A DNA stretch of 64,000 nucleotides from an uncultured Acidimicrobiia bacterium (GCA_964594235.1 CAZQMF010000002.1:5697-69696); one strand, 5' to 3'; positions 2,666 through 41,683 are shown, numbered from the stretch's first letter. Notes: generated from the sequence alone by a model not told the origin. Translations and numbers: made by a program.

Positions 2666-3430
2666 GTGATCGTGTTCCCCGACGTCCAGCCTGGCGACGA
2701 CATCCGCGTGTCCGCCTCGACGTTCGTCGCGTACCGGGAGTGCCCGGATTACGCGAAGTCGCGGCTCGAACAGGTGTGGGGCCCCGACACGATCGCAGGC
2801 TTCAAGGGCGGCTTGGCCCATCAGCTGTTTGCGCGACACCTCACGTCGGGCCCCATTCCCCCCGAAGAGATAGCGCATGTCTGCCGGGAAGAGATCGGCG
2901 CCTCGAACCTGAATCACAAGATGGGTCCTCTCGGAATCAAGCCATCGGACCTCGACAGGGTGATCGGAGAGGTCGGGGCGCTCTACGACCGTTTCCGGCA
3001 GTTTCCCACCGACGGGTTCGAGGGAGCGGAGGTGCCGCTGGAGGCGATCCCTGTTGAAGGGGTCACACTGCACGGAAAGGTCGACGCGGTGTTCACCGAT
3101 CCCGCGGGTGTCCGATTGGTCGACTGGAAGACCGGTGACGTGGGTGATGTCGACGACCAGCTCGGCTTCTACGCGCTGCTGTGGTCGCTCGATCGGGGGA
3201 GTCTGCCCGGCGCGGTCGAGGCGGTATCGATACGCACAGGTGAGCGTCACATGTCCCAACCGGAGCCGGCAACCGTGAAGGACACGGCACGACAGGTGGC
3301 CGACATGGTCGACTCCTTGCGAGCCGCCTGGCGCGAGAAGCGGGGAATCGAACGGGTTGGCGGTCCGTGGTGCCGCTACTGCGGTCTCCTCCCGACGTGC
3401 GACGAAGGTCGGTCCGCCACGTCGCTGTGA
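2666..3430 (+). CDS. PD-(D/E)XK nuclease-superfamily protein (Cas4/RecB-like) with a C-terminal Cys cluster
   Basis: 254 aa. It has ...VDAVFTDPAGVRLVDWKTGDV... (D...D/E-x-K core) and a C-terminal WCRYCGLLPTC plus an earlier YRECPDY. This is a candidate Fe-S cluster as in the Cas4/AddB nuclease domains. Confidence 0.55.
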   Translation: MIVFPDVQPGDDIRVSASTFVAYRECPDYAKSRLEQVWGPDTIAGFKGGLAHQLFARHLTSGPIPPEEIAHVCREEIGASNLNHKMGPLGIKPSDLDRVIGEVGALYDRFRQFPTDGFEGAEVPLEAIPVEGVTLHGKVDAVFTDPAGVRLVDWKTGDVGDVDDQLGFYALLWSLDRGSLPGAVEAVSIRTGERHMSQPEPATVKDTARQVADMVDSLRAAWREKRGIERVGGPWCRYCGLLPTCDEGRSATSL

Positions 3431-3433
3431 CAG

Positions 3434-3958
3434 TCAGTCGTCTTTGCCGTGATCGCCATGTCCATCGTCGGTCGACGCAACGATCGTCCCGCGCTCGCAC
3501 GTTGCGTGGAACGTCGACGTGTGCTCTTCACTCTCGAACGTGATCTCCACGGCCGAGTCGCTCACCTCATGCTGCACGACCTGATAGCCGGCCCGTGGTG
3601 CGGCGGACTTGAACACGATCCTGTCCCCATCGCACGCGACCTTCACCCACCCTCCATCGAGGTCATATCGTTCAGTCCCTGTTGTGGTCGTGGTGGTGAC
3701 CTGGGCCGGCTGTGTGGTCGTTGTGTCCATCGATGCCGTCGTGGTGGTCGTGTCGGCTCCGCCCTCGGTGGTCGACGTGAAGGTCGGGAGGCTGGTGGTC
3801 GGCTCCTGGGAGGAGTTCGTCTGGGCCGGAACTGCAGCGCGGGATGGCCTGTCGGTGACTTGGTCCCTGACGAGTGCAACTGCTTGACTGGCCAGCGCCA
3901 CCGCCAGAACGGTGCCCATGAGCCAGGCGGCGAACAAGCCGAGCCGTCGAGTATTCAC
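3434..3958 (-). CDS. Secreted or membrane-anchored hypothetical protein with a Thr-rich linker and a 2-Cys globular domain
   Basis: It has an N-terminal signal/anchor (LGLFAAWLMGTVLAVALASQA), then a T-rich low-complexity stretch (TTTTASMDTTTTQPAQVTTTTTTGT), then a C-terminal domain with two Cys. It is convergent with the nuclease gene, and the stops are 4 nt apart. Confidence 0.5.
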   Translation of the reverse strand: MNTRRLGLFAAWLMGTVLAVALASQAVALVRDQVTDRPSRAAVPAQTNSSQEPTTSLPTFTSTTEGGADTTTTTASMDTTTTQPAQVTTTTTTGTERYDLDGGWVKVACDGDRIVFKSAAPRAGYQVVQHEVSDSAVEITFESEEHTSTFHATCERGTIVASTDDGHGDHGKDD

Positions 3959-4010
3959 GATGGCAGTCTGGTCGGGTACGGAGCATCCGGGCGGTAAGGA
4001 GAGGTTAAGG

Positions 4011-4032
4011 ATGCACTAAGCGGGCTGTGCAT
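4011..4032. promoter_or_regulatory. Inverted repeat ATGCAC-N10-GTGCAT, 30 nt upstream of the response-regulator start (candidate operator)
   Basis: atgcactaagcgggctgtgcat; the arms are exact reverse complements. Confidence 0.2.
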
Positions 4033-4061
4033 TCGGTCAATCGAAGATAGGGTTTGCGTTC

Positions 4062-4739
4062 GTGGCATCCGTGCTGATCATCGAGGATGATGTTCGAATC
4101 CGTCAGACGCTCTCCGCGCTCCTTGCCGACAGGGGACACGATGTCGAATCGGTTGGGGCGGGCATGGCGGGTCTCGAGGCGACGTTGTCGCGGAACCGCG
4201 ACGTGGTGATCCTCGATCTCGGGCTGCCCGACATCGACGGTGCCGAACTCCTCAAGATGATTCGGGCGGTGACGTCCACACCCGTGATCGTCGCGACCGC
4301 CCGCGACGACGAGCATGAGATCGTGCGGCTGCTCGACACCGGCGCCGACGACTACGTGGTCAAGCCGTTCTCGGCACGGCACCTCGATGCGAGAATCCGT
4401 GCGGTGCTCCGCCGCGGCATGACGAGCGACGATGACAAGGTCATCGAAGTGGGCGATCTGGTGATCGACACAACATCGAGGGAGGTGTCGCTCGCGGGGA
4501 GTGCGGTGTCGTTGAGCAGGAAGGAATTCGATCTGCTCGCCTATCTCGCGACGCGGCCCGGCACGGTGATCAGCAAGCGAGAGCTGCTTGCGGAGGTGTG
4601 GCGTCAGCCGTACGGGGGAGCGGACAAGACCGTCGACGTACACCTGTCCTGGTTGAGGAAGAAGCTCGGCGAAACGGCAGCCCAGCCGAAGTATCTGCAC
4701 ACGGTGCGGGGAGTTGGCGTCAAGCTGGTGGCGCCGTGA
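4062..4739 (+). CDS. Two-component response regulator, OmpR/PhoB family (receiver + winged-helix)
   Basis: GTG start. It has receiver motifs (LIIEDD...DVVILDLGLPDIDG...DYVVKPF) and a C-terminal trans_reg_C-like region (SRKEFDLLAYLATRPGTVISKRELLAEVW...VDVHLSWLRKKL). Confidence 0.85.
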   Translation: MASVLIIEDDVRIRQTLSALLADRGHDVESVGAGMAGLEATLSRNRDVVILDLGLPDIDGAELLKMIRAVTSTPVIVATARDDEHEIVRLLDTGADDYVVKPFSARHLDARIRAVLRRGMTSDDDKVIEVGDLVIDTTSREVSLAGSAVSLSRKEFDLLAYLATRPGTVISKRELLAEVWRQPYGGADKTVDVHLSWLRKKLGETAAQPKYLHTVRGVGVKLVAP

Positions 4740-6013
4740 GAAGAAGGCTCGCCGTGGTCTCCGCCGCCGTCACGGCGATGGTGGTGCTTGCCTTCCTCAT
4801 CCCACTCGCTGGAATGGTCAAGACCCTTGCCCGCGATCGGGTCTTGGTTGCTGCCGAGCGCGACGCACAGATCTTTGCGCAGACCCTCAGCCCGTACATC
4901 GTCGGCGGAGATTCCGACGACGTTGCGTCGGTGGTGGGCACCGGCGAGCTGTCGGGAGGCGGGCTCCTGTCGATCATTCTTCCGGATGGAACCGTTGTGG
5001 GGGCACCTGTCTCGCTTGACGCCGGGTACCGGCGGGCGGTCGAGGGTGAGGCCTTCCGACAGCCGGTCGACGGTGGTGAGGCGATCTGGGTGCCGGTAGC
5101 TCTGAACGAGACGTTGGGGACGGCCGTCGTTCGGGTGTTCGTCGCCAAAGACCTCCTCACGCGCAACGTGGGGTCATCGTGGTTGATCCTCGGGTCGTTG
5201 GGAATCGCCCTCGTAGCCCTCTCCGCGCTTGTCGCCGACCGCCTCGCACGTTCTGTCGTGTACCCCGTGCAGGATCTTTCGAACGCTGCGCACCTGCTCG
5301 GCGAGGGTGACCTCTCGGTGCGAGTGAGCCCTGACGGTCCGCCGGAAGTCGTCGAGGTCGGAGAGGCGTTCAACCGGCTCGCCGGCAGGGTCGGCGACCT
5401 TCTCGAGGAGGAACGGCGCAACGCCGCCGATCTATCGCACCGGCTCCGGACGCCCCTCACCGCGCTCAGGTTGGAGATCGAGTCGATGCCCGAACGCACG
5501 GACCGTCTCACCGACGCGCTCGACGAACTGGAACGCACGGTCGACTACGTGATTCGACAGGCTCGTCGGCCGGTGCGAGAGGGCATTGGTGTGCTGACCG
5601 ATCTCGGCACCGTCGTCGATGAGAGGGTTTCGTTCTGGGGTGCACTCGCCGACGATCAGGGGAGGGAATGGTCGGCTGACGTTCGGGGAGGTCCGTACAT
5701 GGTTCATGTAGCCCGGGAAGATGCCGCGGCGATGGTCGACGCGTTGCTCGGCAACGTCCTTGCTCACACGCCCGAAGGAGTGGGGTTCCGGGTGCGGATC
5801 CACGCGAGAGATGGGAACGTACATCTGCTGGTCGATGACTCAGGTCCAGGTTTCGCCGACGGATCGCCGCGTCGTGGTCAGTCCAGTACCGGATCGACGG
5901 GTCTCGGTCTCGACATCGTTCGCCGGACGGCCGAGTCCACCGGCGGGACCTTGACAATCGGTCGAGCCGTGGACGGGGGAGGACTCGTGGAGGTCGTGTT
6001 CGGCCGGACGTGA
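4736..6013 (+). CDS. Sensor histidine kinase (TM-HAMP-HisKA-HATPase)
   Basis: The GTG start overlaps the RR stop (GTGA). It has an N-terminal TM, an H-box (LSHRLRTPLTALRLEIESM) and a G-box (GLGLDIVRRTAESTGGTLTI). Confidence 0.8.
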   Translation: MRRRLAVVSAAVTAMVVLAFLIPLAGMVKTLARDRVLVAAERDAQIFAQTLSPYIVGGDSDDVASVVGTGELSGGGLLSIILPDGTVVGAPVSLDAGYRRAVEGEAFRQPVDGGEAIWVPVALNETLGTAVVRVFVAKDLLTRNVGSSWLILGSLGIALVALSALVADRLARSVVYPVQDLSNAAHLLGEGDLSVRVSPDGPPEVVEVGEAFNRLAGRVGDLLEEERRNAADLSHRLRTPLTALRLEIESMPERTDRLTDALDELERTVDYVIRQARRPVREGIGVLTDLGTVVDERVSFWGALADDQGREWSADVRGGPYMVHVAREDAAAMVDALLGNVLAHTPEGVGFRVRIHARDGNVHLLVDDSGPGFADGSPRRGQSSTGSTGLGLDIVRRTAESTGGTLTIGRAVDGGGLVEVVFGRT

Positions 6014-6020
6014 CGGGTTC

Positions 6021-7694
6021 ATGTGGGACAATTCCACAGTGGAACACCTGATCTCACCGGTGGCACGGCTGCGCGCGTCGCTCGACGCACTGGCGGAGCA
6101 GGTCGAGGGGTTACGCTTCGACCTCCCGTCCGAGAGTCGTTCCTACCGTCTGGAGCTGAGGGACGAGCTGACTCGAAGCATTCGCGGGTATCTGATTCCC
6201 CGACTGGGTGATCTCGATGGAGATGTGGTTGCTGTCGTCGTCGGCTCGACGGGGAGCGGCAAGTCGACGCTCGTAAACACTCTGGCAGGGAAGAAGATCA
6301 CACCGACGGGTGCAATTCGACCGACGACGACAGCGCCGGTGGTGTGGTGCCACGTCGATCGAGCAGACGCCTACAGGACCGGGTTCTTCGGCGCTGTCGA
6401 GCCGACCATCGTCGGAGACGAGGAACTCATCCTTCGCGGAGTCACCCTGGTCGACGCGCCGGACTTCGACTCCGTCGTGACCGAGCATCGGGAGATCGCC
6501 GAGGATCTCCTGGCGGTGGCCGATCTGTGCGTGTTCGTGACCAGCGCGCAACGGTACGCCGATGCGGTTCCATGGGAGTTCCTCGAACAGGCGACGCGGC
6601 GTGGAGTGCCGACGATGTTCGTGATCAACCGATTGCCGGCCGATGGCAGGGACGGCATCGTGAGCGACTACCAGCGTCACCTCGCCGAGCGAGGGGTTTC
6701 GCGCGGTGACGTGACACTCATCGAGATAGGAGAGCAGGAGGTCATCGATGGCCGGCTGCCGGCATCTACGGTCGCCTTGATCAAGGACGCGCTGGAGCGA
6801 CTCGCCGATCCTGTCGACCGTCACCGAGTCCTGATCGACGCGACACGTGGAACGATCGACGATGCCGTGACGCGATGTCAGCAGCTCGCCAAGGAAGTCA
6901 GGCGCGACGCAGGCGAGGCACGAGCCTTGGCCGACATCGCGAGGAATGCGTACACAGACCAATACGCAGAAGTCGCCCGTTCGTTGAAAGACGGAACACT
7001 CATCAGAGCCGAGGTGGCTGCACGATGGCAGAAGTTCCTCGGTACCGGCAGGTTCCTCAAGGCGGTCGGCGATCGTCTCGGCAATCTGGGCCGGATGTTC
7101 ACGGACAGACCCTCCCCGGTGGACCCTGATGCACGCAGGGCGCTTGCTATGGAAGTCGAACGGCATCTCGATGCGGCAGCCGCACGGGCCGCAGACTCTT
7201 GGGAACTCGATCACGCCGGCAGGGCGCTTCTCGAGGAAGGGAGGTTGTGGCGTTCAACCCCCGGCCTCGAACGCCGACTCGAGGAGATGATGGACGAGTG
7301 GGTCATCGACGTCGGGACACTCGTCTCAGAACAGGGCAGCGATAGAAAACGTAGGGCACAAATAGGCTCGCTCGGGGTGAACGCGGCGGCAGTCGTTGCG
7401 ATCGTCGCGATCTTCTCACAGACAGGTGGGCTCACCGGCGGTGAGCTGGGTGTCGCCGCCGGGGCGGCAGCGCTTCAGCAGAAGCTCCTCGAGCAGGTGT
7501 TCGGGACGGCGGAGGTCAGGTCGATGGTCTCGGGTGCCCGCGACGCGCTGCTCGCCCGCCTCCAGACCGTCTTCGATCACGAGTCCAGCCGATTCACAGA
7601 GAGGGTGGTCACGCTCGGCTCGGATTCACCCGTCGAACTCGAGACCGCCACCACAGCCGTTCGTGATGCCGCGGAGAGGTTCTATGGCACCTGA
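6021..7694 (+). CDS. Dynamin-like GTPase (IniA/IniC-like, bacterial DLP family), paralogue 1
   Basis: It has a P-loop (VVVGSTGSGKSTLVNTLAG) followed by TGAIRPTTTAPVVW, then a long alpha-helical C-terminal region. The ATG lies 8 nt after the kinase stop. Confidence 0.7.
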   Translation: MWDNSTVEHLISPVARLRASLDALAEQVEGLRFDLPSESRSYRLELRDELTRSIRGYLIPRLGDLDGDVVAVVVGSTGSGKSTLVNTLAGKKITPTGAIRPTTTAPVVWCHVDRADAYRTGFFGAVEPTIVGDEELILRGVTLVDAPDFDSVVTEHREIAEDLLAVADLCVFVTSAQRYADAVPWEFLEQATRRGVPTMFVINRLPADGRDGIVSDYQRHLAERGVSRGDVTLIEIGEQEVIDGRLPASTVALIKDALERLADPVDRHRVLIDATRGTIDDAVTRCQQLAKEVRRDAGEARALADIARNAYTDQYAEVARSLKDGTLIRAEVAARWQKFLGTGRFLKAVGDRLGNLGRMFTDRPSPVDPDARRALAMEVERHLDAAAARAADSWELDHAGRALLEEGRLWRSTPGLERRLEEMMDEWVIDVGTLVSEQGSDRKRRAQIGSLGVNAAAVVAIVAIFSQTGGLTGGELGVAAGAAALQQKLLEQVFGTAEVRSMVSGARDALLARLQTVFDHESSRFTERVVTLGSDSPVELETATTAVRDAAERFYGT

Positions 7695-9228
7695 TCCAGG
7701 CAAGGCACTCGACACGCTCGACATGGTCGTGGCCAAGGCTCGGGACCTCACAGGCGATGACCGGCTCGAAACCTACGCGCGCCTGTCCACGCAGACGAGG
7801 TCACGGCTGGGGTTCCTCGGTGAGACGGTCGTTATCGCGCTGGCCGGCGGAACCGGCGTCGGCAAGTCCAGCCTCCTGAACGCGATCGCCGGCACGCACG
7901 TCGTACCCACCGGCACGATCCGGCCGACGACCGATCGTCCCAGGGTGTGGATGCCGGCGACACCGGAGCCCGGCTTGACCCGGCTCCTCGACTCGTTCGG
8001 GATCGACGAGCGGATTGGGCACTCAGGACGGATCGACGTCGCGATCATCGACCTGCCCGATTTCGACTCGATCGACCTGGGACATCGGGAAGTGGTCGAA
8101 CGACTCGTCCCACTGGTCGACGCGATCGTGTGGGTGTTCGATCCGCAGAAGTACGCCGATCGAGCCGTACACGAGGGCTACCTGCGGCCACTCTCGGATC
8201 ACCGCGACCGGTTTCTGTTCGTCCTCAACCAGATCGACCTGTTCGGCCCTGGGGAGCTCGATCTGGTGAGCGCCGATCTACTCACTCGCCTCGCCGAGGA
8301 CGGCATTCCTGACGCCGAGCTGTTCGCGACGGTTGCCGCCGAGGGTCGCACCGCCGGCATCGACAGACTCCGACGGTTCATCGATGATCGCCTCCTCGCG
8401 AAGCAGCTCGTCCTTGGGAAGCTCGCACACGACCTGTCGACTGCCGTCGAAGGGATCGGGTCAGTGGTCGGGGTGCGCGACGGGCTGGACTTCGATCGTC
8501 GATGGATGCTCACCCGCGACACCTCGGCCGGGTTGCTCGCCGACGTCGTTGCCGGTCCGCCTGAGATCGCCATCATCGAACGAGTGGGGCGCAGGCTCGC
8601 AGTTCGGTCGAGCCCCGCAGCATTGTTCGTTCGTGCGAGGGAACAGGACCGAGCGGAGCCCCACGGGCGACAGGATGCCGCCATCCAAGCAGCCTCCGGC
8701 GAAATCGACACCCTCGTGACCGACCTGGCGTTCGAGTCGGGGGGCTTCTTCGGGGCGCGGCTCCGCGCGATCTTCGGGCCGGCGGACGTCTCACGTCAAG
8801 TGAGGAGGTCGCTCGAAGGTACGAAACTCGCGGCTCCACCGGCCGTGATCCCTTCTGCATGGTGGAAGGTCGCCGCGATGGCGGAGTGGCTCATGGTCGC
8901 AACCGTCGTAGGGTCGATCGTGTGGGCATGGGCAAGGCCCGCCACGCTCGAGAGGGGCACGTGGCCATGGCCCATCATCGTGGGTCTCGCCGCAGTGCTG
9001 GTCGGCGCGGGGTTGGTTCGCCTCGTCATGTCCGGCGGGACCAGGGCCGGAAGGAGATCCGCCATCGCGTACCGGGAGACCGTCGTCGCGTCGGTCGGCT
9101 CGCAAGTCGATCGTCGATTCGGGGTCGAACTCCGCACGGCGATCAGGGACAGGGCAGAACTCGTCGGCCTGTTGACGGAGCTGTCGATCGAAGCCGCCAA
9201 GCTGGAGGCGGCCGTACCCACCGTCTAG
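7684..9228 (+). CDS. Dynamin-like GTPase (IniC-like), paralogue 2, with a C-terminal TM hairpin
   Basis: The ATG at 7684 overlaps the previous stop by 11 nt. It has VIALAGGTGVGKSSLLNAIAG...TGTIRPTTDRPRVWM, which is the same architecture as paralogue 1, and C-terminal hydrophobic segments (WWKVAAMAEWLMVATVVGSIVWAW...WPIIVGLAAVLVGAGLVRLVM). Confidence 0.7.
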   Translation: MAPDPGKALDTLDMVVAKARDLTGDDRLETYARLSTQTRSRLGFLGETVVIALAGGTGVGKSSLLNAIAGTHVVPTGTIRPTTDRPRVWMPATPEPGLTRLLDSFGIDERIGHSGRIDVAIIDLPDFDSIDLGHREVVERLVPLVDAIVWVFDPQKYADRAVHEGYLRPLSDHRDRFLFVLNQIDLFGPGELDLVSADLLTRLAEDGIPDAELFATVAAEGRTAGIDRLRRFIDDRLLAKQLVLGKLAHDLSTAVEGIGSVVGVRDGLDFDRRWMLTRDTSAGLLADVVAGPPEIAIIERVGRRLAVRSSPAALFVRAREQDRAEPHGRQDAAIQAASGEIDTLVTDLAFESGGFFGARLRAIFGPADVSRQVRRSLEGTKLAAPPAVIPSAWWKVAAMAEWLMVATVVGSIVWAWARPATLERGTWPWPIIVGLAAVLVGAGLVRLVMSGGTRAGRRSAIAYRETVVASVGSQVDRRFGVELRTAIRDRAELVGLLTELSIEAAKLEAAVPTV

Positions 9229-9238
9229 CCTGACCACA

Positions 9239-10075
9239 ATGAGTCCCGAAATCATCCACCAACTCATCGTCACCGGCATCGTTCTTCTCGGAACGGTCGC
9301 AGGTTGGCTGATCGTGAACCGCTCGGTTGCGCATTGGGTAGAGAAGATCGGGATCGGCGACAGCATCCCGGACACCGAGCGACGGCAGCGAGCCACAACG
9401 CTGTGGGGAGGGATCCGCAGGGTGATGCTGGTCGTCGTCGGCATCGTCGTCGTACTGACGGTCATGAATATCTGGGACATTCCGATCGGTTCCTTCATCG
9501 CCATCGGTTCGGCTGTCGGCGTGGCTGTCGGCTTCGGCGCTCAGAGCGTCGTCAAGGATGTCATCGCGGGGTTTCTCATCTTGGTCGAGAATCAGTTCGC
9601 GATCGGTGACGTTGTGAAGATCGCGGGGGTCGCCGGCTCCGTTCAGGAGATGCGGCTCAGAGTCACGGTTCTGCGCGATCTGGACGGCTACGTGCACTTC
9701 ATCCCCAACGGCACGATCACTGTCGCCTCGAACTACACGAGCCTGTTTGCGCGCGTCGTGGTCACCGTCGGCATCTCATACTCCAGCGATGTCGATCGCG
9801 CTATCCAAGTGATGGGAGACGAGCTCTCGGCAATGGCCGAAGACCATCCGACCGAGATCCTGGAGCCACCTCAGATGCTGGGCGTCGAGGAGCTGGGTGA
9901 CTCGGCGGTTTCTCTACGGGCTCTGATGGTGGTCGGACCGCAGGATCGATGGGCGATGCGAAGAGAGGCGCTGCGGCGGATCAAGAAGCGATTCGATAGC
10001 GAAGGCATCGTGATTCCGTTCCCGCAAGTGACCGTCCACATGCCGCCGCCTCCCATGGCTGCGCCCCCCGCATAG
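9239..10075 (+). CDS. Small-conductance mechanosensitive channel (MscS family)
   Basis: It has three N-terminal TM segments, then the MscS signature region (NQFAIGDVVKIAGVAGSVQEMRLRVTVLRDLDGYVHFIPNGTI). It starts 11 nt after the DLP2 stop. Confidence 0.8.
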   Translation: MSPEIIHQLIVTGIVLLGTVAGWLIVNRSVAHWVEKIGIGDSIPDTERRQRATTLWGGIRRVMLVVVGIVVVLTVMNIWDIPIGSFIAIGSAVGVAVGFGAQSVVKDVIAGFLILVENQFAIGDVVKIAGVAGSVQEMRLRVTVLRDLDGYVHFIPNGTITVASNYTSLFARVVVTVGISYSSDVDRAIQVMGDELSAMAEDHPTEILEPPQMLGVEELGDSAVSLRALMVVGPQDRWAMRREALRRIKKRFDSEGIVIPFPQVTVHMPPPPMAAPPA

Positions 10076-10105
10076 CCGCTACAGTTCGTCGGATCCGGAG
10101 GGATC

Positions 10106-10963
10106 ATGACGGAATGGCGGGAGTGGCAGGCATGGCGCCGTGTGACAGCGGTATCGCTCAACGCCGTCTCGAGCGCGGCAGCCGTCGGTGCAGAAGCTGC
10201 AGCCGCTCTCGAACAGCTCGCTTCGAGCGTCGCCGCGTACGCTCCGGAGTCGTATCCGGAGGCGATCGAGGATGCCATCGAGCTACTCGTCGACCGCCAA
10301 GCGGTCCGGGCGCCGGTCCTGGCGCTCTGCAACCAGATCTACCTCGCACTAGGAGAAGGCCCTGAGCGTGTTGTCGACGTCGCACGTGAGTTCGCCGAAC
10401 GGCTCAGCGCGTCGACGGCGAAGATCGGTTCCGAAGGCGCGAGCCTGATCGGGGAAGGGATGACCGTTCTGGTCCACGGTGTCTCCCGTTCGGTGAGGGC
10501 GGTCCTCGACGCCGCGAAGGAGCACACATCGTTCCAGGTGTGTTGCACCGAGGCGATGCCCGGTGGCGAGGGCCTCGAGATGGCGGCGGAACTCACCATC
10601 GCCGGCTTCGACGTAGAAGTGCTCGACGACGATTCCGCCGTTGAGTTCCTGCCTGGGGTCGACCTGGTGTTGTCTGGCGCCGATGCCATTGGACCTCACA
10701 GAGCTGTCACGAAGGCCGGCATACGCCGGCTCGCCTCTGCAGCGATGATCGCCGGGGTCGACCGATACCTGACCGCCGGTCGTGACAAGATCCTCCCGGT
10801 CGGTCTGTTCCGTCTCACATCCCAGCTGAGTTGGCGCCGATCTCTCTCAGAAGTCGTCGAACTGGATCAGTTCACTGCAATCGTTTCGGATGTCGGCATC
10901 CTGGCCATCGACGACATACCGGACCTCACGATCGAACAGCCCGTCGCTCCGGAACTCGCCTGA
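10106..10963 (+). CDS. eIF-2B alpha/beta/delta-like family protein (MtnA / ribose-1,5-bisphosphate isomerase-like), short and divergent
   Basis: It has C-terminal blocks (VLVHGVSRSV..., DLVLSGADAIGPHRAVTKAGIRRLASAAMIAGVDRYL) like the eIF2B-family Rossmann domain. The N-terminal domain is reduced. Confidence 0.45.
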   Translation: MTEWREWQAWRRVTAVSLNAVSSAAAVGAEAAAALEQLASSVAAYAPESYPEAIEDAIELLVDRQAVRAPVLALCNQIYLALGEGPERVVDVAREFAERLSASTAKIGSEGASLIGEGMTVLVHGVSRSVRAVLDAAKEHTSFQVCCTEAMPGGEGLEMAAELTIAGFDVEVLDDDSAVEFLPGVDLVLSGADAIGPHRAVTKAGIRRLASAAMIAGVDRYLTAGRDKILPVGLFRLTSQLSWRRSLSEVVELDQFTAIVSDVGILAIDDIPDLTIEQPVAPELA

Positions 10964-12965: not shown

Positions 12966-14189
12966 CGACTCCAAAGGAATCGGAGCGTCCGTCACTCCCG
13001 CGAGAACGATGCGTGCCGCGCCGAAGAACAACAGCAACGACGCAATCGCAGCGACGCGTCCCCACTTGAGTACGTCGGTGATGAGAGCCCAGACGAGCGG
13101 TCCGAGAAGCGTGGCGAACCTACCGACGGTCGCGTAGAGGCCATAGAACTCGCCGTAGTGCTCGGAAGGTGAGATCCTCGCCATGTACACGCGGTCCGAC
13201 GTCCAGGTGGCTCCCGCGGCCGCCCCGCCGAGGACTCCGACGAACCATCCGAGACCTCCGCGATCGGACAAGGCGGCGACAACTGCGACCACCACTGCGG
13301 CGCTCCACAGGTACAGCGCAGAGTGAAGCGCCTTGCGTGGCCCGACCCGATCGACAACCTTCCCGACGATGAACGAGGCGATGACTGCCGACACAATCGC
13401 CGAGAGCGCGAGCACGTCGGTCTGACGGTCGCTGAATCCCATCTCGGTGACGGCGAAGATCGCCACGAACAGAAACGCCGTGTTCGCACCATCCGCGTAC
13501 AGGAACCGCCCGATGAGAAACCGCGCCACGCCCGGATAACGTCGAGCTCGACGCCACGAGCTTGCAAGGTGCGCGAGCGCTTCGATGAGGCGTGGCGGTC
13601 GCCCCGGCCGTCGGGGTCGTGGGCGCTCCTCGACGAAGACGAACGCCGGCAATGCGAAGACGAGAAACATGAGAGCGAGTACCCGAAACAGCGGCCCGTA
13701 CCCGTAGCGATCCAACATGATGAGGCCGGTCCCGATCGCGAGAAACGACCCGAGATAGCCAACACCCACGCCGAGCCCGGACACGAAGCCTCGGTTCATC
13801 TCGGTACTGACATCGGGGAGCATCGCGTCGTAGACGACGCTGCCCAGCGTGAACCCGATTTGACCCACGATGTAGAGCGCGAGTGATGGGTACAAGCCCC
13901 ATATGGTGAGGAGCGCCGTCGCTGCGACCGTCGCCAGCGTCGTCACGATGAGCGCCGGGCGCCGTGTTCCAGCCCGGTCGGAGCGGGTGCCGACCCACGG
14001 TGCCAGCACGATCACGATCGCCATTGCGAGCGCCGTCGCATATCCGAAGAGGGCATCGGTGCCCCCTTGCTCCTGCACCACCCACACGGAGAAATAGCGG
14101 CCGCCGACCGCCAGCGCGAACACCGTGTTCGCCAGGTCATACAGGACCCATGAGCCGGTACTTCGTCGTGACGGGATCCAAGGGTCCAT
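12960..14189 (-). CDS. MFS transporter
   Basis: 409 aa with 12 predicted hydrophobic helices. It has the MFS-like G-x-x-x-D-R/K loop (GTRSDRAGTRRP). Confidence 0.7.
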   Translation of the reverse strand: MDPWIPSRRSTGSWVLYDLANTVFALAVGGRYFSVWVVQEQGGTDALFGYATALAMAIVIVLAPWVGTRSDRAGTRRPALIVTTLATVAATALLTIWGLYPSLALYIVGQIGFTLGSVVYDAMLPDVSTEMNRGFVSGLGVGVGYLGSFLAIGTGLIMLDRYGYGPLFRVLALMFLVFALPAFVFVEERPRPRRPGRPPRLIEALAHLASSWRRARRYPGVARFLIGRFLYADGANTAFLFVAIFAVTEMGFSDRQTDVLALSAIVSAVIASFIVGKVVDRVGPRKALHSALYLWSAAVVVAVVAALSDRGGLGWFVGVLGGAAAGATWTSDRVYMARISPSEHYGEFYGLYATVGRFATLLGPLVWALITDVLKWGRVAAIASLLLFFGAARIVLAGVTDAPIPLESE

Positions 14190-14219
14190 GAAGGGCGACT
14201 GTAGCCGGAGGCAGTTGGC

Positions 14220-15275
14220 TCAGAAGGTCACCGCGACGGAAATCAGTTCCTCGTGTCCGAGGAGTCCAGCCGCTGCCTCCACAGCTCGTTCGGCTTCATC
14301 CAGCGGAAACTCGTGACTCACCAGGTCGTCGAGTCTCGGATCGGTCTCCAAATGGCGGGCCGCCCAGTGGTACCCGGCGCTACTCGCCCCGAACCCTCCA
14401 CGAATCGTGATCTCTTTCAAGACGATCAGGTCGGAGAACAGCTGGTTGACAGCCCGTACTCCCTTCAGGGACGCGACGACGACGGTTCCCCCTGCCCGTA
14501 CGAGATCCAGTGCCGTGTGTATGGCCTCGGGGTCGTCCTTGGTCACGTCCAGCACGACCTCCGGCCGGGCGCCGAGGCTGTCGGCGACGGCGCCGGCGAC
14601 ATCGTCCTTGCGGGCGTCAACGACCATGTCGGCACCGAGTCGTCTGGCGAGTTCGAGCCGGTCTCGATTCTCCGTGAGACCGCTCACCCCGATCCAGCCT
14701 GCTCCCGCCTCCTTGGCGGCGATGACCGCCGCCAGACCTCGCGGTCCCGGTCCGAGGATCAGAACCGAGTCCCCGGTGCGAAGAGCCGAGATCTCGACCG
14801 TCCACGTGAACGCGTCGGCCAGCGCGTGGCCGAACGTGGCCACTGGCGCCTCGATATCGTCGCTGATCGGATGAAGTCGCGCCCCGGGATCCAGGTAGAG
14901 GTACTCGGCGAAGCCTCCCCAGAGGCCGGGGGGTTCCGTCGATGGCAGGCGGCCATATGCGTTGATCGGTCTGCGGAACGAGCACGAGTGAAGGTGTCCG
15001 AGGCATCGGCGGCATGCGCCACAGCGGATGGAGGACTCGACAATCACGCGTGTGCCGATCGGGATGTCGAACGAGTCGTCCACCAGGGATGCAACCCGTC
15101 CAACCACTTCGTGGCCGGGGATCAGTGGGTATCGGATGTATCGGTTCGTTCCCTGCCACACCTGGACATCCGAGCCGGTGACACCGGTCGCTTCGATCGC
15201 GAGCCAGCCGCCGGTTTCGACGGGCTGCAACGCGAATGTCGTTGCCGTGAAACGCTGCGGCTCAACCAACAGCAT
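14220..15275 (-). CDS. Zinc-dependent alcohol dehydrogenase (MDR family)
   Basis: It has a GroES-like N-terminal domain (LIPGHEVVGRV...), a structural-Zn Cys cluster (CGACRRCLGHLHSC) and a Rossmann domain (LILGPGPRGLAAVIAAKEAGAG). I chose the internal start MLLVEP... to avoid overlap with the next gene. Confidence 0.75.
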   Translation of the reverse strand: MLLVEPQRFTATTFALQPVETGGWLAIEATGVTGSDVQVWQGTNRYIRYPLIPGHEVVGRVASLVDDSFDIPIGTRVIVESSIRCGACRRCLGHLHSCSFRRPINAYGRLPSTEPPGLWGGFAEYLYLDPGARLHPISDDIEAPVATFGHALADAFTWTVEISALRTGDSVLILGPGPRGLAAVIAAKEAGAGWIGVSGLTENRDRLELARRLGADMVVDARKDDVAGAVADSLGARPEVVLDVTKDDPEAIHTALDLVRAGGTVVVASLKGVRAVNQLFSDLIVLKEITIRGGFGASSAGYHWAARHLETDPRLDDLVSHEFPLDEAERAVEAAAGLLGHEELISVAVTF

Positions 15276-20458: not shown

Positions 20459-21244
20459 TTACTTACCCGGAGGATACGTGACGGTATCGACGAGTGCACC
20501 CGATTCATCGTAGATCAGAGCGGTATCCCCGTCGTTGTCCCAGATTGGGCCGTTCTCGCACCAGAAGAGGTCTGTCGACGTATCCGTTCCACACCCGGAG
20601 TGGATCGTCACCCGGCCATCGAGAACGAAGCCGCTAGGGAAGTGAAACCGGTGGCTGCTGGAACCGTCTCGGAGTACCCATCCGGTGAGATCTGTGCTGG
20701 TGGTTGCGACGATGGTGACCGTTTCTGCGTTGAGAACGTTCTCATCGGGGCCGGACGGGTTTGCGGTGATCGAACCGATGGACACATCGCCTGTCGCGCG
20801 ACCGCACGCATCCTCCGCCCACATACCGATCCGGTGGTCCTGCGCCGTGGTCATCGCCGCGTTCAGCTCATCTTGGTGACGGGTGTTCGGAGGGTATGCC
20901 TGAGCGAGGGCGAACCCGCCGGCGACGAGGTCCAGGTTCACGGAACGTCCGTCGAGATACACGTAGGCGAGAGTTCTGCCGTAGCCGTCAACGACCTGTG
21001 CGTCGGTTTCGAGCGACACGGTCACTCCCTGAATGAGGCGGGCGAGTTCGTTGGTTGCCTGGGCGCCGAAGCACTCGTCGTGTTCCGGAGCGTTCACACC
21101 GATCAGCCGGACGCGCGACCCTCCCGCGTCGAACGTGTCGCCGTCGATGACACGGGTGACTCTCGCTTCCGAGAGGGGCGCCATCGGGGTGGAGGTGCAG
21201 GCAGAGGATGTGACGACGAGTAGGAGCAGCGCGAGCAATCTCAT
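20459..21244 (-). CDS. Secreted thermonuclease (SNase-like) fused to a lamin-tail (LTD) domain; lipoprotein-type signal
   Basis: It has MRLLALLLLVVTSSAC then VIDGDTFD...RLIGVNAPE...GRTLAYVYL...NLDLVAGGFA (staphylococcal-nuclease fold motifs). The C-terminal LTD-like beta domain reads VTIVATTSTDLTGWVLRDGSSSHRFHFPSGFVLDG...IYDESGALVDTVTY. Confidence 0.75.
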   Translation of the reverse strand: MRLLALLLLVVTSSACTSTPMAPLSEARVTRVIDGDTFDAGGSRVRLIGVNAPEHDECFGAQATNELARLIQGVTVSLETDAQVVDGYGRTLAYVYLDGRSVNLDLVAGGFALAQAYPPNTRHQDELNAAMTTAQDHRIGMWAEDACGRATGDVSIGSITANPSGPDENVLNAETVTIVATTSTDLTGWVLRDGSSSHRFHFPSGFVLDGRVTIHSGCGTDTSTDLFWCENGPIWDNDGDTALIYDESGALVDTVTYPPGK

Positions 21245-21256
21245 GACTGGGACCAT

Positions 21257-22042
21257 ATGGTGTCGGAGGGACAGTATCGTGTAGTTATGCAGATTCGTGG
21301 ATCGATTTCCTTCGAGGAGTCCGGCTCCGGGCCACTCGCGGTGTTCGTCCACGGCTATCCCCTGGACCATCGGTTGTGGCTCGACCAGCTCGAGGCCCTC
21401 TCGGACATCCGGCACTGCGTCGCTCCGGACCTTCCAGGGTTCGGCTCGTCTCAACCTCTCGGAATGTTCACCATGGAGACCGTTGCAGACTCGATCGCGG
21501 CCTTCGTCGGCAACGAGCAGGCCGATGTCGTTGCACTCTCGATGGGCGGCTATGTCGCGCTGGCCCTCTGGGAACGGCACCCCGAGGTCGTTCGATCGCT
21601 CGCGTTGCTGGACACGAAGGCGGGTGCGGACACGCCGGAGGCTCGAGAGGGCAGGAGCGCCCAGGCAGCGCAAGTCGCAGAGCAAGGCACCGGCTCGCTC
21701 GTCGAGGGGATGACACGTGCGCTTCTCGCACCACAGGCCGGCGGGGATGCGAAGAGGCGCTTGGCCGAGATGATCGAGGCAACGACGCCGCAAGCCGTCA
21801 TCGCCGCGCTCCAAGCGATGGCGGGCCGTCGCGACCGTACCGAAGTCCTGTCGACGATCGACGTGCCGGCCGCGGTGCTCGTCGGGGCACTCGATACGCT
21901 CACCCCGCCGACCGTTGCCGTCGAAATGGCCACGCGCATTCCCAACGCGACGGTCAGCGTCATACCAGGGGCGGGTCATCTCACGCCGATCGAGGCACCC
22001 GATGACGTGAGTGCTCTCCTTCGGCACTTTTTCGCTCGCTGA
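21257..22042 (+). CDS. Alpha/beta-fold hydrolase
   Basis: It has HGYPLDHRLW...PDLPGFGSS...the nucleophile elbow ALSMGGYVA...VIPGAGHL. The start is uncertain (21257 or 21287). Confidence 0.7.
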   Translation: MVSEGQYRVVMQIRGSISFEESGSGPLAVFVHGYPLDHRLWLDQLEALSDIRHCVAPDLPGFGSSQPLGMFTMETVADSIAAFVGNEQADVVALSMGGYVALALWERHPEVVRSLALLDTKAGADTPEAREGRSAQAAQVAEQGTGSLVEGMTRALLAPQAGGDAKRRLAEMIEATTPQAVIAALQAMAGRRDRTEVLSTIDVPAAVLVGALDTLTPPTVAVEMATRIPNATVSVIPGAGHLTPIEAPDDVSALLRHFFAR

Positions 22043-22941
22043 TGTCACCACTGGACGGGAGTGCGCCGTCCTGGTCGGTGGTGTGGACCCGGGGTGAAGG
22101 CTGCGAAGCTCTCGCACGCATGCTCTCGGATGGCGAGGCCACGTTCGCCGAGGGTGATCCTCGAGGGGCGTGTATCGCTGCTCGTGCCGACGTGATCGTC
22201 CAGCGGAAGCTCACATCCTTCGATCTCGTGAACGTCGTCGCGTCGAACCGGTTTGATCCCGACGGGGTGTCCTCGGTGGTCGCCGCCATCGGAGGGGGCC
22301 CACACTCGCTGTTCGCCGGGCAGGTCGCTCAGCGCATCGCGATCGCTGCGGGTATTCCGGGCACGATCGTATCGGCATCGAGGAGTTCCGCCGAGGATGA
22401 GGCGGGTCGCAGACATCTCTATGACGTGGGGGCGCATGTTGAGAAGATGGATCGTCGCCTGGAGCGCGTGTCGAGCGCCGGCGAACTCGTCTCGAAGCTC
22501 CCTGACGCGACGCTGCTCGTTCTCGGTGCACCCGGTGGTTCATGGTTCCAGCGGCAGTTCTTCGGGCCAGGACGGCGTCTCATCCAGGCCGCGCCGGGCG
22601 GGATCGTCGTCGTTCGCAGCTCACCGAGACGGTGTTTTCAGGTGGCTGAAGATGCAACCGTGATCGGACCGCTCCTTTCGGTTGCCGAGGTGGCGTCGCT
22701 GAGCGGTGCTCCGGTCATACCTGTTGCCGCGGATGGGAAGCTCGTCGGGCTGTTTCGAAGCGGTGTGGAAGCGTCGGCCGGCATGACCGTACAGGACGTC
22801 ATGGAAGATCCGCTATTCCTCGAGGCGGATGACCCGATTGAGGCTTCGGCCGACCTCCAGACGTTCTTCGACGGGGCGCCGATTCCGGTCGTCGACCGTG
22901 ACGGACGACTCGTCGGTGTCCTGTCCAGCGGCGGGACCTAA
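22042..22941 (+). CDS. Universal stress protein (UspA) domain fused to tandem CBS domains
   Basis: The ATG overlaps the upstream stop (TGATG). The N-terminal half has a USP-like Rossmann region (VVAAIGGGPHS...LLVLGAPGG) and the C-terminal half has CBS-like repeats (VIPVAADGKLVGLF...PIPVVDRDGRLVGVLS). Confidence 0.6.
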   Translation: MSPLDGSAPSWSVVWTRGEGCEALARMLSDGEATFAEGDPRGACIAARADVIVQRKLTSFDLVNVVASNRFDPDGVSSVVAAIGGGPHSLFAGQVAQRIAIAAGIPGTIVSASRSSAEDEAGRRHLYDVGAHVEKMDRRLERVSSAGELVSKLPDATLLVLGAPGGSWFQRQFFGPGRRLIQAAPGGIVVVRSSPRRCFQVAEDATVIGPLLSVAEVASLSGAPVIPVAADGKLVGLFRSGVEASAGMTVQDVMEDPLFLEADDPIEASADLQTFFDGAPIPVVDRDGRLVGVLSSGGT

Positions 22942-40405: not shown

Positions 40406-40645
40406 GCGAGCTGCGCTCGCAGGTTGTCGGTTCTCAGTATTCGGTAGGGAGGCTCGCTGCGCTCGCCGTTCTCGGTTTTTGGTTCTGGGTTTTCTTTAGG
40501 ACACTCGCCGTGCGGCTTTGGTGTGATCCAGGCTGCGTTCTTACTGAAGTATTGATGACTGATGACTGATGACTGAAGACTGAAGACTCATGACTGAAGA
40601 CTGAAGACTGAATACTGTCGGCCGCAGGCTGACTCACTCGCTTTT
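40405..40645 (+). repeat. Dispersed intergenic repeat, expanded copy D, with a long degenerate heptamer array
   Basis: It has the left palindrome GGCGAGCTGCGCTCGC, the GGTTGTCGGTTCTC / TTTTTGGTTCTGGGTTTTC module, GCGTTCTTACTGA, then about 11 heptamers TGA(T/A)GAC/TGAATAC. The 3' end GACTCACTCGC overlaps the gpsA stop. Confidence 0.65.
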
Positions 40646-41626
40646 GGCTTCTCTCGTCATCAGAGCGAGGACGGCTTCCCGTGGACCGGCCCCGTCGTAC
40701 AGCACCCTGCCCACCTGTGTCGCGATCGGCATCTCGACTCCGTGGCGGTGGGCGAGGCTGAGCACCGCCCTGGTGGTCTTCACACCCTCGGCAATCATGT
40801 GCATGTCGGCGATGATGTCGCCGATCGTCCGACCCCTACCCAGTTCCACGCCGACTGTGTGATTGCGGCTCCGGGTCGACACGCAGGTCGCGATCAGGTC
40901 CCCCATGCCGGCGAGTCCCGCGAACGTCTCACGCGAGCCGCCCATCGCGACACCGAGTCGTGTCAGTTCGGCGAGTGCTCTCGTGATGAGCGATGCCAGA
41001 GAGTTGTCGCCGAACCCGAGACCCGACGACATGCCGGCAGCGATGGCGAGGACGTTCTTCAGCGCACCCGCCGTCTCACACCCGACGACGTCCCGATTGG
41101 TGTACACACGAAACGTTGGACCCATGAACAGCCGCTGGAGTTCCTTGGCCTGGTCCATGTTCTCCATCGCGATGACGGTCGCGGTCGGCTGCCCCTCCAT
41201 CACCTCGGATGCGAGGTTCGGACCTGTCATCACACCGACTCGCGAGGGATCGTGATCGAACAGGACGTCCATCGTCACTTGGGTCATTCGCAAGAGGCTG
41301 TCCTGCTCGATCCCTTTCGACAAACTGAGGATCGGTACCGATGAGTCGAGTCTGCCGGTGAGCCCTTCGATCACAGTTCGGTACCCGTGTGACGGGACGG
41401 CCATCACGACCACGTCGGTTCTGTCGACTGCTTCGTCCAGATCACTGGTCGCGCGGAGACCATAAGGGAGGCGGTGACCTGAGAAGTAGTCGGGATTCTC
41501 CCCGGTGGTTCTGATCGCTTCTGCCAGCTCCGGGCGGCGGGCCCAGAGCACAGTGGGGTGGGTTCGGGCGCTGAGGGCCGCGACCGTGGTCCCCCACGAA
41601 CCTGCTCCGATCACACTCACACGCAT
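40634..41626 (-). CDS. gpsA: NAD(P)H-dependent glycerol-3-phosphate dehydrogenase
   Basis: It has MRVSVIGAGSWGTTVA...NPDYF...LSKGIE...GALKNVLAIAAGM. The upstream part of the 725-aa ORF is antisense to ychF. Confidence 0.85.
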   Translation of the reverse strand: MRVSVIGAGSWGTTVAALSARTHPTVLWARRPELAEAIRTTGENPDYFSGHRLPYGLRATSDLDEAVDRTDVVVMAVPSHGYRTVIEGLTGRLDSSVPILSLSKGIEQDSLLRMTQVTMDVLFDHDPSRVGVMTGPNLASEVMEGQPTATVIAMENMDQAKELQRLFMGPTFRVYTNRDVVGCETAGALKNVLAIAAGMSSGLGFGDNSLASLITRALAELTRLGVAMGGSRETFAGLAGMGDLIATCVSTRSRNHTVGVELGRGRTIGDIIADMHMIAEGVKTTRAVLSLAHRHGVEMPIATQVGRVLYDGAGPREAVLALMTREAKSE

Positions 41627-41683
41627 CTCGTCGTACCGTAGTCCGCTCCGCCATCCCATCGTCGCCGGCGTCCGGCATTCCTC

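Follow-up and report, generated by a model that had tools for sequence, protein, structure and literature searches.

We analyzed a 64,000-nt stretch of DNA from an uncultured Acidimicrobiia bacterium (the window; all positions count from its first letter), in which a response regulator (RR), a sensor histidine kinase (HK), two dynamin-like proteins (DLP1 and DLP2) and an MscS-type mechanosensitive channel are encoded one after the other between positions 4062 and 10075. Comparison with related loci makes it reasonably probable that this cluster consists of two adjacent units of different evolutionary age, an ancient operon built around the DLP pair and a recent two-component unit. The initial annotation, made from the window alone, had read the genes as one self-contained module for membrane surveillance and repair; the linkage of the DLP pair to MscS stands, whereas the two-component system does not hold as a conserved part of it. 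The window has a G+C content of ~64%, so high that open reading frame (ORF) calls are approximate, and its close protein relatives are annotated Acidimicrobiia metagenome-assembled genomes. Six plus-strand genes lie within 4062-10963 and, with their surroundings, are laid out as follows:

2666-3430: PD-(D/E)XK nuclease-family gene
3434-3958, minus strand: hyp174, a small membrane-anchored protein without a Pfam match, divergent from RR
3995-4019, plus strand: TAA-N5-GGTTAA-N8-TAA repeat element in the hyp174/RR intergenic region (3959-4061)
4062-4739, plus strand: OmpR-family response regulator (RR; Response_reg 92 bits, Trans_reg_C 87 bits)
4736-6013, plus strand: sensor histidine kinase (HK) with two transmembrane (TM) helices, an extracytoplasmic loop of ~110 aa, HAMP, HisKA and HATPase_c
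6022-6032, plus strand: extended -10-like element TGTGGGACAAT, conserved at the DNA level before the DLP1 start
6039-7694, plus strand: DLP1, dynamin-like GTPase of 551 aa (557 aa from ATG 6021; Dynamin_N 56.8 bits)
7684-9228, plus strand: DLP2, dynamin-like GTPase of 514 aa (Dynamin_N 45.6 bits)
9239-10075, plus strand: MscS-type small-conductance mechanosensitive channel of 278 aa (MS_channel_2nd, PF00924, 70.3 bits; MS_channel_3rd, PF21082, 43.7 bits)
10106-10963, plus strand: IF-2B-family protein (PF01008, 80.6 bits)

The evidence for the older unit comes from ~95 loci, assembled from exact-protein look-ups at falling DLP1 identity, at least eight genome loci, and 80 metagenome loci found by a DLP2-alignment scan; they were sampled via sequence patterns and include near-duplicates (L009/L017, L053/L054, L025/L026, and L068/L069). 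Neighbors were scored by BLASTP against the window proteins, with at least 2.3 kb of upstream or 1.1 kb of downstream sequence required for a locus to be informative on that side, and the loci were placed on a neighbor-joining tree of the DLP2 G domain (~230 residues). Wherever contig ends permit, DLP1 followed by DLP2 is an invariant core, including in Streptosporangiaceae and Nonomuraea. The gene next after DLP2 is MscS in 18 of 60 informative loci and in 4 more on shorter contigs (22 total), and these loci fill one large Acidimicrobiia-like clade in which DAGK is also kept downstream. Within this clade MscS appears to have been lost ~7 times in scattered positions (L001, L011, L014, L016, L023, L024, and L060); the other Actinomycetota clades, Streptosporangiaceae among them, have no MscS downstream. 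The flanks are retained as well (pyruvate kinase, VanW, PD-(D/E)XK nuclease-family, IF-2B-family, DAGK, ADP-ribosylglycohydrolase, and an MFS transporter), and since the pair thus sits in a long syntenic block with unrelated housekeeping genes, conserved gene order alone is no evidence of a module.

More telling are the junctions themselves. DLP2 and MscS share a 4-nt ATGA/GTGA overlap in L013, L031, L033, L034, L043, L050, L053, and L057, and by eye in L036; gaps of 9-19 nt separate the two genes in L010, L015, L028-L030, L035, L037, and L041, the window having 10 nt, and the gaps in L009, L017, and L018 are 41-48 nt. The MscS start could not be placed in L012 and L020. Moreover, MscS stays beside DLP2 where the IF-2B-family gene has been lost. 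These tight junctions, together with the retention of MscS despite IF-2B loss, provide good evidence from comparative sequence for a DLP1-DLP2-MscS operon conserved across the large clade. The channel assignment itself agrees with the family features, PF00924 and PF21082 scoring above cut-off and PF21088 just below it (22.3 bits, cut-off 23.1). The IF-2B-family protein, related to ribose-1,5-bisphosphate isomerase and MTR-1-P isomerase, is probably a co-directional neighbor outside the system: its gene follows MscS after 30 nt in the window, lies 250-277 nt from MscS in L013 and L015, and is missing between MscS and DAGK in many MscS-linked loci. The association between the DLP pair and MscS did not surface in full-text searches of the open-access literature; by that search, an operon of this kind conserved across a class is a new genomic association.

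Several features of these regions were noted along the way. In at least ten loci of other Actinomycetota clades, an HtrA-like protease (Trypsin_2+PDZ) is encoded 3' of DLP2 on the same strand, taking the position of MscS (L002, at 13648-14616, L005, L065, L066, L075, L079, L081, L084, L085, and L087). Among these loci the gene upstream of the pair was scanned in L002 alone, where it is CysG-like; Nonomuraea (L097) also has a CysG-like gene there. This last locus is the Nonomuraea gerenzanensis chromosome NZ_LT559118.1 (11.85 Mb), which is listed in PLSDB as 'plasmid I' with only 10 annotated features and in which the DLP pair is unannotated. Two loci carry two DLP1-DLP2 pairs in tandem on the same strand within a span of ~6-8 kb, L063 (1180-3485 and 7175-9801) and L076 (8998-11240 and 14836-17543); in each, the two pairs fall in different DLP2 clades of the tree.

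In the window, the gene borders given by the initial annotation were largely confirmed: RR and HK overlap by 4 nt in GTGA (RR stop TGA 4737-4739, HK start GTG 4736), DLP1 and DLP2 overlap by 11 nt (DLP2 ATG 7684, DLP1 end 7694, with a Shine-Dalgarno (SD)-like GGAGAGG at 7673), and MscS follows DLP2 tightly (stop 9228, ATG 9239). No terminator-like site was predicted between the genes, the three matches all lying inside the HK, MscS, and IF-2B-family genes (mean 2.7 in shuffles). A generic scan of the window for sigma-70 promoters and terminators gave match counts at shuffle level and is uninformative, and Rfam and tRNA scans of the window returned no matches. The start of DLP1, which had been set 8 nt past the HK stop, needs revision: an ATG does exist at 6021 (7-nt gap from the HK stop at 6013), but the comparative evidence favors GTG 6039, which leaves 25 nt between HK and DLP1 and yields a 551-aa protein, matching in length the identical database entry P0001.

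This comparative evidence is a short DNA element at the DLP1 start. The exact 11-mer TGTGGGACAAT is found there in the window, L009, L010, L011, L012, L013, L016, and L017, and the 0.95 Mb of locus sequence contains no other copy; variants (CGTGGCACAAT or TGSSASAAT) occupy the same place in ~13 more loci from other subclades. Within the MscS-linked clade, TG[GC][GC]A[CG]AAT (a near-variant in L030) stands by the DLP1 start in 20 of the 22 loci with a locatable N-terminus and upstream DNA. The element is in frame with DLP1 in the window, L009, L011, and L016 and in the other two frames in L010, L012, L013, L023, and L028/L029; its occurrence in all three frames indicates that it is conserved as DNA and not as protein. 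It consists of T(-15) G(-14) n followed by a hexamer (G/C)A(C/G)AAT with A(-11) and T(-7), a layout that is that of an extended -10 promoter in bacteria, including actinobacteria. In the window, the TG falls at -15/-14 and the hexamer GACAAT at 6027-6032, 6 nt before GTG 6039. The same 6-nt spacer between hexamer and start codon recurs in 9 of 16 loci (window, L009, L017, L011, L020, L041, L049, L053, and L054), with 7 nt in L010 and 8-10 nt in L012, L016, L013, L023, L028, and L029. With a 6-nt spacer, transcription would be expected to begin with the first nucleotide of the start codon, giving a leaderless mRNA. No convincing SD sequence precedes either ATG 6021 or GTG 6039. Based on these observations, it appears that the DLP operon has its own promoter, overlapping the 3' end of HK, and is read as a leaderless mRNA; in Actinomycetota, a promoter within the 3' end of one gene can give rise to a leaderless transcript of the next. 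The combined layout of extended -10 and start codon occurs six times across the window (3.0 +/- 1.3 in shuffles), an excess too small to indicate a genome-wide leaderless signal. A second conserved extended -10-like element, GGTGTGACA(G/C)(G/A)TT, was seen 17-43 nt upstream of the DLP1 element in L012 (~7960), L015 (~7984), and L020 (~1475). The genes upstream of DLP1 in three of the loci have no Pfam match: L012 and L015 carry a divergent gene of 347-421 aa, and L014 a same-strand gene of 418 aa.

The two-component system has a quite different distribution. RR and HK lie directly upstream of the pair in 5 of 53 informative loci (L009, L010, L011, L012, and L017), all within one small subclade that includes the window. 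Along falling DLP1 identity, the full RR-HK-DLP1-DLP2-MscS-IF-2B order is seen in L009 (85%) and L010 (70%); L011 (54%) has the two-component system without MscS; in L012 (49%) a 421-aa gene on the opposite strand stands between HK and DLP1; L013 and L015 (42% and 41%) have DLP1-DLP2-MscS without the two-component system; and L014 and L016 (44% and 47%) have the DLP pair alone. The gene order proposed by the initial annotation is therefore of mixed age: DLP1-DLP2 is invariant and MscS extends across a large clade, whereas the two-component system is confined to a single subclade. By domain content, with a receiver and a winged-helix domain in RR and the sensor-kinase domains in HK, the two are an OmpR/EnvZ-class two-component system; the best NCBIfam matches of RR are CseB, MtrA, and CreB (~184 bits), all below their cut-offs, and neither protein reaches the cut-off of any NCBIfam equivalog compared (CseBC, MtrAB, BaeSR, and others). 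The divergent hyp174 consists of an N-terminal membrane anchor joined through a Thr-rich linker to a C-terminal domain of ~75 aa, and its homologs are limited to the five loci that carry RR and HK. By this exact co-occurrence the three genes behave as one insertion/deletion unit, and on this distribution hyp174 belongs to the two-component unit and not to the DLP operon.

The candidate regulatory elements divide in the same way. RR has a -10-like hexamer, TAGGGT (4048-4053), placed 8 nt ahead of its GTG start, and the repeat TAA-N5-GGTTAA-N8-TAA between hyp174 and RR is unique in the window at up to one mismatch (0 expected), recurs at the equivalent place in L010, L011, and L012, and occurs nowhere else in 96 loci. 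Repeats about one helical turn apart are typical of OmpR-family operators, and we regard this element as a candidate operator for RR; near DLP1 it is absent in all loci. The simplest and most likely reading is that RR autoregulates and controls the hyp174 gene. The promoter-like element before DLP1, on the other hand, is found with or without an upstream two-component system.

These data bear directly on the model of the initial annotation, in which RR-HK, the DLP pair, and MscS form a dedicated envelope-surveillance and repair module, the kinase sensing damage and RR inducing DLP1-DLP2-MscS. Six co-directional genes with overlaps or gaps of at most 30 nt and no terminator between them, a kinase with the two-TM, HAMP, and HisKA architecture of an envelope sensor, and an adjacency kept in L009, L010, L011, and L017, down to 54% DLP1 identity, all fit such a module, and the spacing from RR to MscS would permit co-transcription. 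It is nonetheless hard to reconcile with a two-component system limited to 5 of 53 informative loci and a single subclade, with the opposite-strand gene that interrupts it in L012, with the presence of the two-component system but not MscS in L011, with the same promoter-like element in lineages that have no two-component system, and with the absence of the candidate RR box near DLP1. In addition, because neither candidate start is preceded by an SD sequence, a read-through transcript from the two-component operon would translate DLP1 poorly. We therefore consider a single module quite unlikely; a dedicated sensor kinase is not supported, and a single operon of all the genes is doubtful. The two-component system is probably a recent neighbor and not a dedicated controller of the DLPs. 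More generally, tight spacing and the lack of a terminator after a two-component system do not establish a regulatory module.

To place the two GTPases, we compared Pfam ranking with predicted structure. Dynamin_N (PF00350; cut-off 27 bits) is the top family for both DLP1 (56.8 bits) and DLP2 (45.6 bits) and ranks above MMR_HSR1. AlphaFold2 models built from 17-sequence alignments (mean pLDDT 79.7 for DLP1 and 83.0 for DLP2) both place a G domain before long helices resembling a neck and trunk. Among the best 50 Foldseek matches to the PDB listed for each, all 50 for DLP1 belong to the dynamin superfamily (top BDLP 2j69, 1.2e-10, with Drp1, Cj-DLP2, and IniA), as do nearly all for DLP2 (top Cj-DLP1 5owv_A, 1.4e-10, with BDLP and IniA); E values for BDLP, Cj-DLP1/2, IniA, and Drp1 are 1e-10 to 1e-8 over ~600 or more aligned columns. 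TM-scores of 0.25-0.38 are low, which is to be expected when hinge-rich proteins are compared in different conformations. Taken alone, the PDB sequence searches would point to an Era/HSR1-type GTPase: their matches are generic P-loop proteins (Der, EngA, HydF, and Era; E 3e-5 to 0.03), and Cj-DLP1/2 are only just picked up (E 0.015-0.1). We rejected this assignment on the Pfam ranking and the full-length fold. By these models and profiles, both GTPases are members of the dynamin superfamily, in line with the initial annotation, which had named a non-dynamin family as the outcome that would overturn it and a Dynamin_N profile search as the check.

The models also suggest how the two partners differ. 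DLP1 is predicted to comprise N-terminal helices, the G domain, and a helical neck and trunk, with a conserved Gly/Ala-rich hydrophobic segment at residues 446-495 that is paddle-like. DLP2 has a TM hairpin of two hydrophobic helices (~392-417 and ~426-455; nt 8857-9048) followed by a long helix, as the initial annotation had proposed, and the hairpin is kept in 17 homologs. The P-loops and the TG(A/T)IRPTT segments it had described are likewise present, at residues 75-82 (GSTGSGKS) and 96-103 (TGAIRPTT) of DLP1, numbered from ATG 6021, and residues 55-62 (GGTGVGKS) and 76-83 (TGTIRPTT) of DLP2. A subclade with a 415-aa DLP2 (P0186, P0200, and P0222; L025, L026, L044, and others) is ~100 residues shorter and without the TM hairpin, indicating that membrane anchoring of the second partner is not universal.

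The nucleotide-binding motifs were aligned for both paralogs from ten loci covering all clades. Both share G1 (GxTGxGKS) and the switch I motif RPTT, and in both, in every lineage examined, G3 reads DxPDxDS without the canonical DxxG Gly (DAPDFDS in window DLP1, residues 145-151, 6453-6473; DLPDFDS in window DLP2, residues 123-129, 8050-8070). G4 is NR(L/M/I) or SRVP in DLP1, without the Asp (NRLP in the window), and NQxD-like in DLP2 (NQID in the window). The pair thus carries G1 and the switch-I Thr but lacks the G3 Gly and, in DLP1, the G4 Asp of the canonical G1-G4 set, and its nucleotide switch may be non-canonical. The family is large: at E <= 1e-10 it numbers 1,807 cluster representatives, the clusters being formed at 50% identity. 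The combination of RPTT switch I and DxPDxDS G3 is a signature of a large actinobacterial DLP subfamily of ~1,800 clusters, whose switch chemistry may differ from that of classical dynamins. Among the best 150 of the 1,807 representatives, no DLP2-MscS or DLP-HK fusion protein was found; one protein of 796 aa, P0423, joins DLP1-like and DLP2-like parts through a low-complexity linker that looks out of frame, and is either a fusion or a frameshift artifact.

Among known systems, the DLP pair most resembles Streptomyces DynA/DynB, its best architectural match: the genes are from the same phylum, stand in tandem, and encode a soluble protein followed by a two-TM protein (PMC8748795). In Streptomyces, DynA is cytoplasmic and DynB has two TM segments, in the order P_dynAB-dynA-dynB (PMC8748795 and supplement; bioRxiv 10.1101/2025.06.23.661029), and DynB orthologs are reported to be widespread in Actinobacteria, including unicellular ones (PMC8748795; bioRxiv 10.1101/2025.06.23.661029). 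The P-loop Lys of the first protein is in a similar position (K74 in Streptomyces DynA, K81 in window DLP1), while that of the second (K129 in Streptomyces DynB, K61 in window DLP2) shows that the N-terminus of DLP2 is shorter. Streptosporangiaceae and Nonomuraea have homologous pairs at 29-37% identity, and a homolog search seeded with a Streptosporangiaceae DLP2 gave back only close relatives. Streptomyces dynAB is under sporulation factors and works with SsgB, SepF2, and SepX (S. venezuelae DynB is vnz_12105); the window pair, unlike it, lies in an MscS operon of an Acidimicrobiia bacterium that we assume to be unicellular.

This likeness raises the alternative that the pair is a divisome accessory which stabilizes or regulates the FtsZ ring, with MscS and the two-component genes present as mere synteny. 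In its favor, cell division is where the only experimentally studied actinobacterial tandem pair of this architecture acts (PMC8748795; bioRxiv 10.1101/2025.06.23.661029), Streptosporangiaceae and Nonomuraea have homologous pairs, and the whole region is a syntenic block with unrelated genes. On the other hand, the 8-9 independent ATGA/GTGA overlaps between DLP2 and MscS and the retention of MscS when IF-2B is lost argue for a selected operon, and the HtrA-like protease downstream of the pair in other Actinomycetota clades likewise belongs to envelope quality control. To our knowledge, SsgB, the Streptomyces DynB partner, is restricted to sporulating actinomycetes, which also counts against a division role here, as does the lack of a cell-division gene among the ORFs scanned in the window, where partner proteins were not searched for. 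We judge such a role for the window pair unlikely.

Outside the Actinomycetota, the best structural matches are Campylobacter jejuni Cj-DLP1/Cj-DLP2 (5owv/5oxf) and Nostoc BDLP (2j68/2j69), at E 1e-10 to 1e-8 over ~600-680 aligned columns. These share with the window pair a G domain, a helical neck and trunk, and a membrane paddle, and also paired genes for which heterotypic assembly has been proposed; however, identity is 12-14%, a true TM hairpin lies toward the C-terminus of window DLP2, and the window G3 is DxPD instead of DxxG. The family name given by the initial annotation, IniA/IniC-like, could not be upheld. The mycobacterial proteins are, as here, actinobacterial members of the dynamin superfamily encoded side by side, and IniA is a structural match (E 2.5e-8 and 3.3e-8). 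In sequence, IniA (6j72/6j73) is not among the best 60 of 142 PDB profile matches at E <= 1, of which the weakest listed has E 0.19, so that a weaker match is possible, and the top PDB profile matches are Der/EngA/HydF-type P-loops. The iniB-iniA-iniC context is missing as well, with no Gly-rich IniB-like ORF and a histidine kinase gene upstream. IniA lacks an N-terminal extension (P-loop K49) and has a canonical G4 (K200 and D202) (PMC6715688), both unlike the window proteins, and it binds membrane via a loop instead of a TM hairpin such as that of DLP2.

Bacillus subtilis DynA and Eleos/LeoABC, of the same superfamily, act in membrane protection or phage defense, and DLP1 does give weak PADLOC matches to LeoBC (24.7 bits) and LeoA (23.2 bits). 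Over both models, though, the PADLOC scores are 14-25 bits and confined to the G domain; the NCBIfam model of Bacillus DynA, a fused two-headed protein unlike the window pair, scores 24.7 bits against a cut-off of 1600; and the locus is stable, vertically inherited housekeeping synteny and not a variable defense island. An anti-phage function is thus highly improbable, and on these grounds we rejected it.

We propose that the older of the two units is a tandem DLP pair of the actinobacterial type seen in Streptomyces DynA/DynB, which in a large Acidimicrobiia-like clade would form a three-gene operon with MscS. DLP1-DLP2-MscS would be transcribed from its own extended -10 promoter, TGTGGGACAAT, as a leaderless mRNA beginning at GTG 6039, with DLP2 translation coupled to that of DLP1 through the 11-nt overlap. 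DLP2, anchored in the cytoplasmic membrane by its TM hairpin, may recruit DLP1, a soluble protein with a paddle-like segment, and nucleotide-dependent DLP1-DLP2 hetero-oligomers could then tether, stabilize, or remodel membrane. Co-expression with a tension-gated MscS channel would suggest that the operon helps the cell to withstand membrane stress of mechanical or osmotic origin, possibly at the septum during division; the main candidate roles we infer are maintenance under membrane tension or envelope stress and an accessory function in the divisome. The younger unit, the two-component system with hyp174, would have been gained once, in the subclade of the window, between the PD-(D/E)XK nuclease-family gene and DLP1, and would mainly regulate itself and hyp174, with any control of the DLP operon exerted only by read-through. 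A more specific proposal is that DLP1-DLP2-MscS carries out tension-responsive membrane maintenance and repair through physical or functional coupling of the DLPs to the channel, with a non-canonical switch in which DLP1, because of its degenerate G4, is a regulatory, weakly hydrolyzing or non-hydrolyzing subunit; this we put forward as speculative and rather doubtful. The data show the anatomy of the genes, the dynamin-superfamily fold, how the neighboring genes are distributed, and that the promoter-like element is conserved; that the promoter is active, that the mRNA is leaderless, that DLP1 and DLP2 interact, and what the operon does in the cell are predictions.

Several observations weigh against our proposal of an ancient DLP operon beside a recent two-component unit. 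The predicted promoter and leaderless start derive from a consensus match and conservation, and the DLP-MscS adjacency lies within a long syntenic block, so that part of its conservation could be inertia and not selection. HK and DLP1 are only 7-27 nt apart in four of the five two-component loci, with no predicted terminator, which makes read-through from the two-component promoter plausible; their adjacency persists at 54% DLP1 identity, and a kinase with two TM helices and HAMP is of a class typical for envelope-stress sensors. The G3 motif without Gly and the DLP1 G4 without Asp mean that GTPase activity cannot be assumed, and the likeness to DynA/DynB is one of gene order and architecture. 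Tandem bacterial DLPs are already known; what appears distinctive here is the class-wide operon with MscS, the leaderless-type promoter-like element of its own, and the non-canonical G3. The in vivo roles of bacterial dynamin-like proteins are poorly defined, and the MscS link offers a testable hypothesis, that DLPs act in membrane-tension or osmotic-shock homeostasis.

Elsewhere in the window, a protein with SNase and lamin-tail domains is encoded at 20459-22117 (minus strand), and a Na+/H+ exchanger fused to a universal stress protein domain at 42784-44955 (plus strand). A 725-aa ORF at 40634-42811 (minus strand) matches GpsA only in its C-terminal half, and either the ORF is over-extended or its N-terminal part is unassigned. 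The remaining ORFs scanned in the window are ordinary metabolic genes.

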